Shown here: positions 54,001-60,000 of the stretch, piece after piece
Layout of the letters: every line of letters starts with the position of its first letter
Position numbering within the stretch: the first letter of the stretch is position 1
IMG/VR virus record: IMGVR_UViG_2925908680_000007
Span: 3,851 to 67,850 of that record
Length of the DNA stretch: 64,000 nucleotides
From: a virus
Lineage: Duplodnaviria; Heunggongvirae; Uroviricota; Caudoviricetes
Reading direction: 5' to 3' (one strand)
Position numbers: made by a program

Positions 54001-57000
54001 TTGATCGCCTTACCATAATTCTGAACGGTTTGTGTGCCGCCATTGATGTGCGTTTTGTCAGTTGACCCACCATCAACAATTTGTTCACCACTTTCAATAT
54101 TTGCCTCAGTGGCTAAACCATATACCGTTTGCTTGCCACCTTTGATATTTGCTTTATCAGAAGTGGCACTGGCATATATTGTTTGGGTGCCAGCACTATT
54201 AAGTACAGTGCCAACATCTTTTCCATAAACATCCATTTTGCCGTTGGCATTAATAATCGTATCAACTGCCCGGGAACCAGTGACGACTGTTAATGAGCCA
54301 GCGTTTTCCAGCACTACATTTTTAGCTTCTGAATTCCTGATGTAGAAAGCATCACCATAACTGTTGGTTCCTTCGATAAGGGTTCCGGAAGTTGTGGAAG
54401 CAATTAATGCGCCGCCGGATTGTTGCTCAACATGCTTAGCCTCACCACCGTCCTGAACCTCCAGAACGCCACCATTATTAAGTCTGGTGGTATCTGTTTT
54501 AGCCTCCTTCTGGACAATCAGCTTACCGCCAGCATCAACGGTAGTATTTTTCGCCGAGGTTTTAGCCACTACCGTCAGTTCGCCGGTATTTTCCAGCACA
54601 ACATAATTAGCCTCCCCTCCGGTAATAGTGAAGTGAGAGAGCTTGTTGTATCCTTCAATATCAGTCCCTGCGCCCGTGTTGGCAACTAAAGCACTGCCCG
54701 TCTCCTGGTTAACCCCATGTGCAATACCGCCGGTATAGACAATCAGCGAGCCTCCGGCGCTAATATTGCTGCCAATTGCCGTACCATCTTTCTCAACAAC
54801 TTGCTGGCTCCCGGAGGATATAATTGTTGTGTCAGCTTTCCCACCGCTTTTGATATTTTGCGTTCCGCTGTTGATATTGGTGCCTGTGGCTATGCCATAA
54901 TTATTAAGATTCTGTGTGCCACCATTAATTATGGTATTTGTCGCGTTTCCTGCAACATCCATAACCCCGCCATTATCTATTCGGGTCGCATCAGCTTTAG
55001 CATTCGTTAAAACTGACATTGTTCCTTTATCTTTAATAATCGTCTTGTTTGCGGAATGAGATACTTCTAAATGGCCTCCATTTTCCAGCAACACATTGTC
55101 TTCCACTTTATTGTGGATGGAGAATGCACCTTCACTATTCGTACCGCTCACCGTCGTACCGTTAGTGTTTGTTTTTAAAATTGCACCATCGTGCTGGGTA
55201 ACATTTGTTGCCGTACCACCACTAACATCAAGCACGCCACCGGAATAAACTTCAATAACATCCGAGGTGCTGGTGTTATCAACAATTTGCGTGCCACCAG
55301 AATAGATCTGCGTAATTTTTGCCGTTGACTTACTATTCAGAGACTGAGTTCCGCCTTCAATCGTCGTGTCCAGCGCACGGCTCTCATATACTCTTTGCTC
55401 ACCGCCATTTTTAATGGTTGTTGTTTCTACTGTGCTCTGTTCAACATACTGTCGACCACCATTTATGGTTGTGTTCGTTGCCAGACTTCCTTGTACTACG
55501 TCCTGAGAGCCAGACTTATTTATCGTTGTACCATCAGCATGCCCTTGAACTTTTACTATCTGGCTACCACCATCAATGAGTATTCCATTCGCACTCCCTC
55601 CCTCTACGCGTGAAGCACCGCCCTTAATTGTCGTTCCATTGCTGATACCCCCTTTATAAACGTCCTGATTGCCACTCTCGATTGTCGTACCTGTGGAAAT
55701 ACCCCCGTCATGAATTGACTGTCTGCCACCGTTAATGGTTGTATTATTAGCCTGCCCCACAAAATTGTTATGACTTCCTATATCTTGATATCCACCAGAT
55801 TCAATAAGACTTCCATTAGATACCCCGCCATGAACATTCTGCTGGTCATGGTTGATAATATGAGTGTTATTTGTTGTACCTCGTTCATCCACTTTTTGGT
55901 TGCCATCTACAGTCTCATCGTTTACCACACCAATAACATCAGGAGTGAAGGCCGCCATACCGGGCGGGGCATATATCAAGGCAGATATCAATAAGGAAAG
56001 TACTGAGCGGCGACAATAATGGGGACTGGTCCTGTTCATAAATTTCATCCTCTGAAAAGTGAATACTGAGTAGCGTTTAAGCGACCTTAGCTCTGCTGCA
56101 ACATCAGCCCACAGGCACCAGACCAGGGGATTCATCCTGAAGAGACAGCGCAAGTGTATTGTGTTCACCGCTCATCAAAGACATCATGATGAAATGATGA
56201 TATTCCACATAAGAAAGAAGCATTTTTTAAACGCAGTGCGCTGAAGTATGGTTGGATAAAAAAGTCAATCTATTCAGGGAATACGGGGGTATTCTTTTCT
56301 TTCGACAATCAGGTCGTCGGCAAAATAAAATGATTTACATAATCGTTTCTGATGAATATCTTCTGCTCACATAAAAATCACACAATAACTTTGAGATCGC
56401 AGATTCTTTTACTTTTACAGCATTCGTCCCCCCATTGTTGGGCAAATATAGATTGGGCCAGAGCACGAAAGTTAATACCACGTTTGCACAGCTCCTCCAA
56501 CAGCACGACAAGATGCCACATACTGCGCCCCAGTCGGTTCGGTTTACAGACTACCCGTGCGTCCACCGCCGATAATGTCCTGAGCAGTTTTTTCAGTCCG
56601 GACCTCCTGCCACGGTTTTACGTTGAAGAGGTAACCCTGAGCACGCAGTTCATCAGTCAGGCGTGGTGTACCGTAACCCTATTATTGATGGGTAAGATCA
56701 AAAAAACTTTCAGGCAGCTAAGGAAAGTTGAACCAGACATTAGAATAAATATTTCAACCAATTACAGCACCAATTCAGACACCGCCAGCTCAACAAATAA
56801 ATCAAGGGGTTACGTGAAAGCGTAGCCCCTTTTTCTTTGGTAGTGGCAGCAAAATGGTTGTAGTGTAAAAAATAATCCCGTTTAATCAATCAATAATACA
56901 TATTGTTTCAATCTACGTTATTATCTCTTTGTAAAAATAGCCATTTATTAATCATTGAAAACTGCTTTTAGAACTTGATACAACGGGACTAGTCACAACA

Positions 57001-60000
57001 GGACTATTCTCAACGGGATCATCCTCAGAGGAACTATCATCAAAGTCATCATCCATAAATAAAATATCATCGAATGGTGCCACGCCCGTGATGAGTTTTA
57101 TTTTATTATTACGATCAGTCAAGACTCCACTTAAACCGTTTTCGCTCACAGGTTTTAATGATTTTTCATTACTCTTGTTGTAAGCAGGCGCATTAAAAAT
57201 ACACGGAGTATCAAGATCAAACAATGACGTTCCCCAGTTCACATATTGAATATCATAGTTACTGAAGTTCTGTCCAGAAAAGAAGCATCCCTTAAAATCC
57301 AATCCACCTAAATTATATAAACCATCCTCTTCTTTTTGGAGAGTAATGTTAATTTTGGCTATCTCCCGGACATCATCGCCATTTTTATATTTGAATACCG
57401 TTTCAAGATTTTCCCCACACAGTTTGACTTCTGGAAATAATTTGAAATCAAAGCCTATATTATTATGTATCAACGTAGATGAACAAAAGATGGAGAAAGC
57501 TTGCAGTGCTGAATTATAGCTTTCGATTTTATCCTGAGGCTGCGCTCTTGGTAAAAACTCATAGCAACATTCATAAAAATTAAGTAGAAACTCTGAAGAC
57601 CTTCCATTTTTATCAAATAATATCCCCTTGAACTCATTCACAAACGCATCTTTTTTTTCTTGAATATCTATGGGGTGTTCCTTTGACTCTGACAAAGATG
57701 AAATCTCATCTATTTTGTTTTCATATGAATTACGTGATTCCATACAGACATTTGGCGGCGTTTCTAAAATAACACTACGCGTACTACTTGGCTTAAGTAA
57801 ACCAACATGAAAATCACTTTTTCTTATATTATCGAAAAGGTTCTGTTCATTTCTTTTAGCGCATTCAAAAAACTGATCGGCATTATTTTTATTCGATAAT
57901 TTTTTAGTTTCAGAAAACACATTTTCATTGTTTTCCAGCTTTAGTTTAATGAGAAGATTTTCCCAGACCTGCTTGCTTAAACATATTACGTCAGGCTCAC
58001 CAGAACTAACTAACTCGTGATTATTATTAAAGTGTACGTTGAATACCTTTAAGTTATTTTCACCAACTTCATATTTAATACGTTTTAATTGTTCTCCAGC
58101 TCCCATAATGACAAAGGCGTTGCCTTCTTGATATATACATTCAGACATCATTTTTTGTAAAGTTTCAAGAGCACCGCGATACGTCTCTGATGCAGCTTCC
58201 TTACAAATTAATTTTAAAATACTATGAGCTAGTAGCTCCATGTGTTTAGAAGATTTATTTTCATTATAACTTCCACTACCCAAAACTGCGCTAGCGTTAA
58301 ATCCGTTGCTTTTACTAACTAACATTGTCTATTCCTCAATTAATGTCTACATGGCTATTTTTAATTTTATTATTGTTTGTCACTATAAAAAATCGCTCAT
58401 TTGAGACAATTGCTGGCATTAACAGCTTCATATGCTATACATGGTACTTTTAATTAAATTAGCACAAGAATGTTAAATTTAATAAACAAAAAGTTATTTC
58501 GCTGTATGATAAAAACCACCCGTTATAATTTATTAGTGAAATTCGTTTTTCGAGTGTTAGAAATTTATATCTCAATAGCGTTGGTTAATGAGCATAGCCA
58601 CGCTCCTGTAACGCTCACAAAACTCATCTGCCTGCGGCGGGTGTTCTGGTCAGTAGTAGATGTTTAAGGCGTGGCAGAGACATTTCATCCTTACTCTACG
58701 GCATTGTTCTACATACATTGGTTGTGGTACTCACTCATCATCAGTGAGCGAACAGAGAATAGTTCAGTGATTTGAGTAATTAACCTGATTAAATTAAGGG
58801 GTATAATAAATGATAATACTCTGGCTTTATCGTTAATTACTTAATTCCACATGTAAGCAATTTGCCCGCTTGGCATAGCGGGCATTTTTTCCAGGTACTT
58901 TTGAATGAGTACTGATGGATAAATACATTGCAGTGGCGTGCCACGTACCAAAACACCAGCCCTCATTCGAAACAACCCACCGCACTTCTTCCTTGAAATG
59001 GCGTTAGTCATGAAATATAGACCGCCATCGAGTACCCCTTGTACCCTTAACTCTTCCTGATACGTAAATAATGATTTGGTGGCCCTTGCTGGACTTGAAC
59101 CAGCGACCAAGCGATTATGAGTCATGAGGCAAGTCCATTCTATATTGTTTTGGTTTGTTCGTAATTGTTTTATTAATTGTTTATAATCAAGTAATTATGT
59201 AATTGCTTCTGTTTCCGCTTGGTTCCGTTTTTTCTCCATTGTACGATCGTTACCTGACCCATTACCTGACCCAAATTTACGAGTTATTTTGATTGTTACT
59301 GGTTTAGAAAAGAGGTTCTATGGCCGTCAATCTAACTGAAACAGCTATCCGAGCATTGAAAGCAAAAAAGACATCGTTCTATGTCTGGAGCAACAGTTCT
59401 CAACGTGGCACTGGACGACTTGGCATCAAAGTTCAGTCTTCTGGCAGCAAAATTTTCTATTTCCGCTATTACGTGGAAAAAGGGAAAAAAGAAAGATTCA
59501 TTCAATTGGGTATATGGCCTGAGATGAAACTGGCTACAGCGAATGAACTGGCAAAAAAGTATGGTGCCTGGCTCATTGAAGGAAAGGATCCCCAGACAGA
59601 ACTGGAGCGACAACAGCTTGCAGAACAGCAGCGGATACAACTCCATCAATCACAGGGCTCATTTGAAGCATTGATTCATGGTTATGTTAACAAAATGAAA
59701 ATTGATAATAAGAGAACATGGCAGGATGTTCTGAAACGCCTTGAAAATGAATGCTATACAGTGATCCCCCGTGAGACTAAAGCTAAAGATGTGACTTCCG
59801 GACAGATTAAACATATCCTGGCCGGGATCATTCAGCGCGGTGCAGTGGTTCACTCTAACCGGATCCGTTCTTACCTGATGGCTGCATTTAACTATGGTCT
59901 GAAAGCTGATAACGATCCGATGAACACAAGTGTAGGGATTACTTTTGGGCTGGAGGCCAATCCGGTATCAGTGATACCGAAACAGTCATCTGCTGAAAAA

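Follow-up and report, generated by a model that had tools for sequence, protein, structure and literature searches.

ypjCB of Escherichia coli and Shigella: an intact allele of a species-restricted orphan gene, its evolution and a tentative reading of its function

Introduction

The closest described counterparts of the gene discussed here are ypjC (b2650) and ypjB (b2649) of Escherichia coli K-12, the two halves of one gene that lies beside the tRNA gene ileY. We analysed a 64,000-nt stretch of DNA (the window; positions 3,851 to 67,850 of IMG/VR virus record IMGVR_UViG_2925908680_000007) in which the same gene, ypjCB, forms a single open reading frame (ORF) of 457 codons plus stop, with an ATG start, at 56952..58325 on the minus strand. 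A first-pass annotation of the window had singled out this ORF as an isolated low-GC gene between island remnants that looked horizontally acquired and might conceivably encode a secreted effector. Deletion of ypjC from K-12 allows more enteroaggregative E. coli (EAEC) to colonize a mixed biofilm, and ypjC expression rises about 2-fold on contact with the pathogen; constitutive ypjC expression has no effect, and attempts to obtain a ypjC mutant of EAEC 55989 were unsuccessful (PMC3646849). Hha, a partner of the silencer H-NS, is reported to bind the ypjCB region and to alter ypjC expression, and its overproduction induces ypjC in biofilm cells (PMC2408971). The remaining mentions of ypjB or ypjC that we found in the literature are list entries, searches with guessed O157 locus tags gave nothing relevant, and no paper naming DUF5507, DUF5508 or YpjCB was found.

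Two other groups of described systems are relevant. Cargo ("moron") genes and exchangeable effector loci sit at prophage ends. ypjCB likewise consists of a single AT-rich gene that has signals of its own and adjoins a phage-type Pin invertase remnant and a tRNA attachment site; unlike such cargo genes, it is carried by no phage among 50,697 records and never leaves its one chromosomal position, and its alleles are similar in age to the E. coli genes around it. The second group comprises the pentapeptide-repeat proteins (PF00805/PF13576), which are built of tandem A(D/N)LXX pentads with a hydrophobic centre and fold into a right-handed quadrilateral beta-helix. Among these, Qnr and MfpA mimic DNA, and pentapeptide repeats also form beta-helix domains in the type III secretion system (T3SS) effectors SopA/NleL/EspX and PipB2.

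Results and Discussion

Identification of the gene

The 3.4 kb around the ORF are 100% identical to E. coli strain cq9 (pig faeces, China; NZ_CP031546.1), in which the identical coding sequence is annotated as ypjCB, "YpjCB family protein" (WP_000961357.1). The protein scores 942.4 bits against NCBIfam model NF050179 (cutoff 650 bits), with residues 1–449 aligned to model positions 1–465. It matches two Pfam families, each with a cutoff of 27: DUF5507 (PF17612) over residues 1–160 (E = 6.7e-110, 364 bits) and DUF5508 (PF17621) over residues 195–457 (E = 9.6e-178, 589 bits). The window allele therefore has all the hallmarks of the family, namely the model score, both domains and the slot between the pin fragment/ypjA and ileY. 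In K-12-type genomes this slot is occupied by the same gene at 98.1% DNA identity, with a stop at codon 161, which is Gln in the window allele. For this reason a separate 160-aa YpjC and 263-aa YpjB are listed in K-12, whereas the window allele is intact. Other alleles encode 449, 474 or 484–492 aa, and the exact protein sequence found here occurs on at least 1000 public contigs. With high confidence, the ORF is an intact allele of ypjCB, a catalogued gene of uncharacterised function. Its description as an accessory gene of E. coli and Shigella, with the evolutionary history given below, is equally secure. The gene is already known from RefSeq, NCBIfam and Pfam entries, and the window copy is a common allele.

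The ORF has a GC content of 0.342 (0.29 at third codon positions), compared with 0.48 for the whole window, and the sliding GC profile falls to 0.31–0.36 over the gene. With such a composition, stops would make up about 7% of random codons, and the arithmetic chance of 457 open codons is estimated at ∼1e-15; thus, the frame is not a chance occurrence and the ORF is real. Codon usage is atypical, with ATA providing 10 of 26 Ile codons and TTA 19 of 42 Leu codons. The coordinates, length and low GC content given in the first-pass annotation agree with our results, as do the AT-rich flanks (intergenic GC of 37% upstream and 39% downstream), the acidic Ser/Pro-rich tail, and the presence of a decayed autotransporter and an invertase fragment next to the ORF. 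Its placement of the gene between island remnants has to be corrected, since ypjCB occupies a conserved E. coli segment, ssrA-ypjA-pin'-ypjCB-ileY-ygaQ-glaH; this segment is resident in the chromosome and flanked by two integration hot spots, and the gene is not island cargo of the strain.

Distribution and origin

An exhaustive phmmer search of 1.84 billion cluster representatives returned 47 matches, which comprise a second full-length cluster at 78% identity, fragments belonging to this family, and a BNR-like repeat protein whose weak match we judged spurious. Among 185,579 prokaryotic species genomes (one per species), scanned with two N-terminal peptide patterns and hence less sensitively than with the exhaustive phmmer search, ypjCB was found only in E. 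coli and Shigella, apart from one probable contaminant contig. That contig (DEQI01000374.1, our locus L004) is 2.8 kb long, belongs to the metagenome-assembled genome of "Planococcaceae bacterium UBA3370" and carries a ypjCB 97% identical to that of E. coli; it is almost certainly E. coli contamination. No ypjCB was detected by tblastn in 50,697 phage records. In the corresponding plasmid search, the three full-length matches were mislabelled chromosomes and the fourth was a 118-aa fragment (residues 168–285) on a 245-kb record. The protein matches only its own family, of unknown function, in PHROGs. In the PDB, phmmer gave no match, and the best profile match was a dehydrogenase at E = 0.61.

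Within E. coli, 3078 of 5426 complete genomes carry ypjCB (88–100% DNA identity), always as a single chromosomal copy, and carriers include O157:H7. The gene is missing from 43% of these genomes; the ileY-ygaQ region is present in 3414 of the 5426. The low GC content, the codon usage, the patchy presence, the lack of a relative beyond E. coli and Shigella and the binding of Hha together support a foreign origin of the gene, which would have been acquired horizontally. This part of the earlier interpretation stands, and the secreted-effector role suggested with it is still unsupported. The acquisition is ancient rather than recent: dS between ypjCB alleles (0.05–0.18) is no greater than that of the housekeeping neighbour glaH (0.15–0.23), and the chromosomal slot is constant.

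Sequence evolution

Pairwise Nei-Gojobori comparisons of eight ypjCB alleles gave a whole-gene ratio of nonsynonymous to synonymous substitution (dN/dS) of 0.7–1.0, compared with 0.02–0.06 for glaH in the same strains. By region, the ratio was 0.7–1.5 in the N-domain, 1.6–3.6 in the linker and 0.3–0.65 in the C-domain core. Alleles that are 12% apart in DNA all keep 449–492 open codons. In neutral simulations based on the observed substitution spectrum, the frame stayed open in only 0.5% of cases after 159 substitutions, the number by which the window allele and that of locus L009 differ. The linker indels (25 and 35 aa) are all in frame, and length variation also arises from the choice of stop codon. 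Continuing selection on ypjCB is supported by the dN/dS of the C-domain, the low neutral retention and the in-frame indels.

Among 119 full-length alleles, entropy was highest at residues 1–20 (0.68) and at residues 141–160, just before the linker, and the most conserved blocks were residues 261–280 and 341–360. The gene has been inactivated repeatedly, by the nonsense codon in K-12 and by frameshifts in Shigella flexneri and in strain 23CRST032, and truncated forms of YpjCB are common in the protein database. The segment ypjA-pin'-ypjCB-ileY (54500–59123, compared across loci L007–L013) is a recombination mosaic, in which adjacent 150-nt blocks are 1–30% divergent; the blocks include non-coding DNA, for example 58579–58724. 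We therefore rejected the idea that ypjCB is uniquely hypervariable, as the whole segment from ypjA to ileY is mosaic.

Protein architecture

YpjCB has a predicted mass of 51.6 kDa and an isoelectric point (pI) of 4.95. Its highest 19-residue Kyte-Doolittle mean is 0.87, that is, it lacks a hydrophobic segment, and no signal peptide, Sec signal or membrane segment was found. A check for secretion signals, proposed with the first-pass annotation, thus gave no Sec signal; the type III-like composition of the N-terminus was judged by inspection only. Pfam detected no catalytic, nuclease, ATPase or DNA-binding domain. From its sequence, the protein is predicted to be soluble and acidic and to consist of a leader, an N-domain, a linker and a C-domain:

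58242..58325, minus strand: leader, codons 1–28; Ser/Asn/Gly-rich, basic (pI 9.5), the most variable part
57846..58325, minus strand: N-terminal domain DUF5507 (PF17612), residues 1–160, equivalent to K-12 "YpjC"
57654..57845, minus strand: linker, residues 161–224; in-frame insertions of 25 or 35 aa in other alleles
57075..57653, minus strand: conserved C-terminal core of DUF5508 (PF17621), residues 225–417
57213..57317, minus strand: seven pentapeptide-like repeats, residues 337–371 (YNLGG LDFKG CFFSG QNFSN YDIQY VNWGT SLFDL)
56955..57074, minus strand: acidic Asp/Phe patch and Ser/Pro/Val tail, residues 418–457; pI 4.05

The first 30 residues contain 7 Ser, 4 Asn and 2 Glu, and the leader differs among alleles in sequence, not in composition. 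Two runs of the C-terminal core are invariant, SYNSALQAFSIF (residues 269–280) and SGQNFSNYDI (residues 350–359). The tail, FDDILFMDDDFDDSSSEDDPVENSPVVTSPVVSSSKSSFQ, carries a net charge of -10; according to a comparison of allele ends, its final 8 residues result from a TCA sense codon in place of the stop used by the 449-aa alleles. Single-sequence AlphaFold2 gave a predicted local distance difference test (pLDDT) score of 38 for both the full-length protein and the C-domain, with values of 25–33 in the leader, and both models are unusable. A Foldseek search against the PDB returned only noise (best E = 0.025, template-modelling score < 0.1).

The pentad stretch is the lowest-entropy and best-conserved block of the protein. 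The central residue is hydrophobic in all seven pentads (L, F, F, F, I, W, F) and is preceded by Asp or Asn in five; the score of this pattern was reached by 26 of 20000 shuffles of the protein, in a test devised after the pattern had been seen. The likeness to pentapeptide-repeat proteins lies in these tandem hydrophobic-centred pentads and in an hhalign alignment that places residues 339–364 in register with QnrB1, at 3.7% probability. The Pentapeptide families are the sole foreign Pfam models that touch residues 337–371, and both remain below threshold: PF00805 gives E = 0.07 and 13.2 bits, under its gathering threshold of 20.2 bits, and PF13576 gives 12.2 bits, under its cutoff of 27. In contrast to the pentapeptide-repeat proteins, the YpjCB stretch is only 35 residues long (less than two helix turns) and is embedded in an otherwise unrelated domain. 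As judged from these alignments, the stretch resembles pentapeptide repeats without being a member of that family.

Expression signals

Three elements suggest that ypjCB is transcribed and translated on its own:

58382..58409, minus strand: sigma-70 promoter-like site TTGTCT-16-TATAGT; 9/12 matches in a consensus scan
58333..58337, minus strand: ribosome-binding site GAGGA, 7 nt before the ATG, read directly; kept in 10/10 loci compared
56804..56831, minus strand: terminator-like hairpin with a T-rich tail, ∼120 nt past the stop; conserved in other loci

Ahead of the ATG, a stretch of 130 nt is strikingly conserved among the loci compared. The promoter-like site lies ∼55 nt upstream of the gene and is nearly invariant among alleles; promoter-like consensus matches in the region show no excess over shuffled sequence. 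Given this site, the strong ribosome-binding site and the hairpin, ypjCB looks like a monocistronic, self-contained unit. ARAGORN and Rfam found no real tRNA or other RNA in the flanks of the gene.

A 16-nt inverted repeat (15/16 identical; 56932–56947 and 58348–58363) exactly brackets the ORF, with the promoter-like site outside it and the Pin fragment nearby. Comparison of 10 loci showed no change in the upstream arm, and decay of the downstream arm in L009 and L010. By our estimate, chance alone would yield about 0.3 repeats of this kind in the region. A synthetic query for the inverted junction reached ≥80% coverage in none of the 3172 genomes that hold the locus. An invertible ON/OFF cassette of the Pin/Hin/Gin type was rejected, as the repeat is near chance expectation, one arm is degraded in some alleles, the inverted orientation was not found and the invertase is only a ∼60-aa fragment. 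The repeat is probably fortuitous or a relic.

Genomic context

In strains free of insertions the order is ssrA (tmRNA), ypjA/EhaD, a 120-nt ORF, the pin fragment, ypjCB, ileY (tRNA-Ile), ygaQ (amylase) and glaH, and the order around ypjCB is the same in K-12-like, O157 and divergent strains. The window retains the following neighbours:

53139..56168, minus strand: ypjA/EhaD, an AIDA-type autotransporter gene truncated at its C-terminus; 12 AIDA repeats, annotated as a pseudogene "missing C-terminus"
56378..56614, minus strand: fragment of a Pin/resolvase-family recombinase, a pinH-like pseudogene of 62 aa; PF00239 E = 1e-4, annotated as lacking both termini
59077..59123, minus strand: 3' 47 nt of ileY tRNA-Ile, from the anticodon loop to CCA, at the junction with an inserted island
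59320..60636, plus strand: P4-type tyrosine integrase of the island in ileY, separate from ypjCB; Pfam Arm-DNA-bind_3 and Phage_integrase

The full-length ypjA of other strains spans 4.6 kb. Here, its 3' end was lost to the insertions at ssrA to its left, a Stx2e prophage and a P4-like satellite. ypjA and ypjCB break independently: the former is truncated and the latter intact in the window, with the reverse in K-12. On the other side, BLAST similarity to K-12-like and O157 loci breaks off at 59123, where 47 nt of ileY have been covered; because the gene is split at this position, ARAGORN calls no tRNA there. In a sister strain an intact ileY lies ∼37 kb away. An annotated 94-aa "hypothetical protein" (58841–59125, minus strand) overlaps the 3' fragment of ileY and its terminator hairpin (58863–58884). 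Part of it (NRLVAGSSPARATK) is translated tRNA sequence and it has no Pfam match; it is likely a spurious gene call.

According to the annotation of the identical cq9 record, positions 1–40600 of the window hold a complete-looking Stx2e-converting prophage, with stxA2e at 23174–24133 and stxB2e at 22898–23161, just downstream of three tRNA genes and a Q antiterminator region, and with an integrase at 39421–40593. The P4-like satellite (40937–52120) encodes an integrase, psu, ogr/delta, an Icd-like protein and a primase-helicase. Its variable slot (hot spot 42137–44864) carries an ABC-3C-type system made up of a 565-aa DUF2326/AAA_21 protein (PADLOC PDC-M68B, 1e-45, LmuB-like), an MC6 middle component (PF20293) and two small orphans that have no Pfam or PADLOC match. 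Past its integrase, the ileY island contains two orphan ORFs, at 60736–61362 (plus strand, 208 aa) and 61449–63080 (minus strand, 543 aa), neither of which matches Pfam, NCBIfam or PADLOC. Homologues of the 543-aa protein fall into just 26 clusters (E. coli, Serratia, Klebsiella, Dickeya and Vibrio), every one of them labelled "hypothetical"; its gene may have an uncharacterised cargo or defence role and is arguably of greater novelty than ypjCB. Elsewhere on the cq9 chromosome (NZ_CP031546.1 4105000–4121000, locus L015, outside the window) lies a heavily decayed cluster for the E. coli type III secretion system 2 (ETT2), in which further genes are broken besides the secretion genes named below.

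Proposed function and alternative explanations

Homology offers little guidance to function: neither a characterised non-secreted family, which would have spoken against the effector suggestion of the first-pass annotation, nor an effector family was found among the relatives of YpjCB. For identity and mechanism taken together, we lean towards the following explanation. YpjCB would act inside the bacterium as a non-enzymatic binding or mimic protein, the surface of its C-domain, formed by the pentad stretch and the acidic patch and tail, would engage a partner, and H-NS/Hha would normally keep the gene quiet. The presence of ypjCB in 3078 of 5426 genomes, together with its pseudogenes in K-12, Shigella flexneri and 23CRST032, indicates that it is dispensable; it would often be lost or broken. 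The mechanism on its own, that of a silenced, dispensable, non-enzymatic cytoplasmic binder, is put forward only tentatively, as an inference from sequence features.

Several points weigh against this proposal. The structural models have a pLDDT of 38 and the pentapeptide match is below threshold (13.2 bits; hhalign 3.7%). The ypjC of K-12 is already a pseudogene, so the biofilm phenotype says little about the intact protein. Finally, the overall dN/dS is 0.7–1.0, and a slowly decaying gene would look alike.

This last point leads to the rival that survives best, although we consider it unlikely: ypjCB may be a functionless leftover of an old mobile element that is drifting to loss and whose intact copies are not yet broken. 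The contrast in dN/dS with glaH, the independent inactivation in K-12, Shigella and other lineages, the absence from 43% of genomes, the common truncated forms and the orphaned position beside a dead recombinase gene would all be expected of such a relic. They have to be set against 449–492 codons kept open in alleles 12% apart (with a neutral retention of 0.5%, calculated for a single pair), indels that are all multiples of three, a C-domain dN/dS of 0.3–0.65 with invariant runs of 10–12 residues, and a promoter-like and ribosome-binding region that is nearly invariant.

It is rather improbable that YpjCB instead founds a new family of fast-evolving, lineage-specific proteins directed at a host or competitor. 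In one version, it may be an ancestral substrate of the cryptic ETT2 or of the flagellar system, with a miniature pentapeptide beta-helix as its working surface, and its near-neutral drift, repeated breakage and loss would track the decay of ETT2; in another, it may be a new single-gene conflict protein.

A separate rival takes YpjCB to be a type III secretion substrate (of ETT2, of the locus of enterocyte effacement or of the flagellar system) that would be delivered into host cells, where its pentapeptide-like, acidic C-terminus would act on a host target, the disordered N-terminus serving as the signal. The absence of a Sec signal or membrane segment, a Ser/Asn-rich, basic stretch of 28 residues at the start that varies in sequence only, the low GC content, the position next to a tRNA gene and a phage-type invertase remnant, the acidic tail, and the short pentad stretch, a motif known from SopA/NleL/EspX and PipB2, are all compatible with this role. 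K-12 also retains other effector-like pseudogenes, such as yedN of the IpaH/YopM family (PMC6928379). However, no homology to effector families or to solved structures emerged from the PDB or the 1.84 billion representatives, no chaperone gene adjoins ypjCB, and the species-representative scan, which covers other T3SS-bearing species, found no homologue in them. Furthermore, in ETT2, the T3SS examined in cq9, five or more core genes are broken: sctI, the needle gene, sctU, sctQ and the ATPase gene sctN carry frameshifts or stops, yet the ypjCB allele of this strain is intact and very common. We know of no published effector repertoire of enterohaemorrhagic or enteropathogenic E. coli that includes YpjCB. 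A secreted substrate is thus a poor prospect.

Equally doubtful is a rival in which ypjCB would be a single-gene anti-phage or anti-plasmid system, located between integration hot spots, that uses the pentad helix and the acidic tail as a DNA mimic. Rapid protein change with a preserved frame is what an arms race would produce; the distribution is patchy; ssrA and ileY, which enclose the gene, are both occupied by mobile elements here; the protein is acidic; and pentapeptide-repeat proteins such as Qnr and MfpA mimic DNA. On the other hand, a PADLOC search gave 0 families at E ≤ 1, and Pfam revealed neither a nuclease or ATPase domain nor any other effector domain. In the ancestral arrangement the genes nearby encode an adhesin and an amylase rather than defence functions, ypjCB is absent from the 50,697 phage records searched, and plasmids hold at most the 118-aa fragment on one 245-kb record.

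Least probable of all is an accessory or regulatory role for YpjCB in connection with the YpjA/EhaD adhesin or biofilm: the constant synteny and shared orientation with ypjA, the effects of ypjC deletion and the ∼2-fold rise of ypjC in mixed biofilm (PMC3646849) and the induction of ypjC by Hha overproduction (PMC2408971) are outweighed by the independent breakage of the two genes, the terminator-like hairpin and dead recombinase gene between them, the lack of a detected DNA-binding domain and the fact that the K-12 results were obtained with a nonsense allele, whose constitutive expression had no effect (PMC3646849).

Biological implications

As it stands, the importance of the finding is limited, since the gene is catalogued and the allele common; ypjCB serves as an example of a species-restricted orphan gene. 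It is present in more than half of E. coli genomes, and a single nonsense codon hid it from K-12 genetics. Its protein evolves about 20 times faster than that of its neighbour, with the reading frame kept. If a function were shown, whether as an exported factor, a conflict protein or a biofilm factor, it would close a long-standing gap in the inventory of E. coli genes and provide a use for two Pfam domains of unknown function. If the host- or competitor-directed reading were true, in either version, an uncharacterised interaction factor would be present in most E. coli, and K-12 would have lost it by one stop codon.

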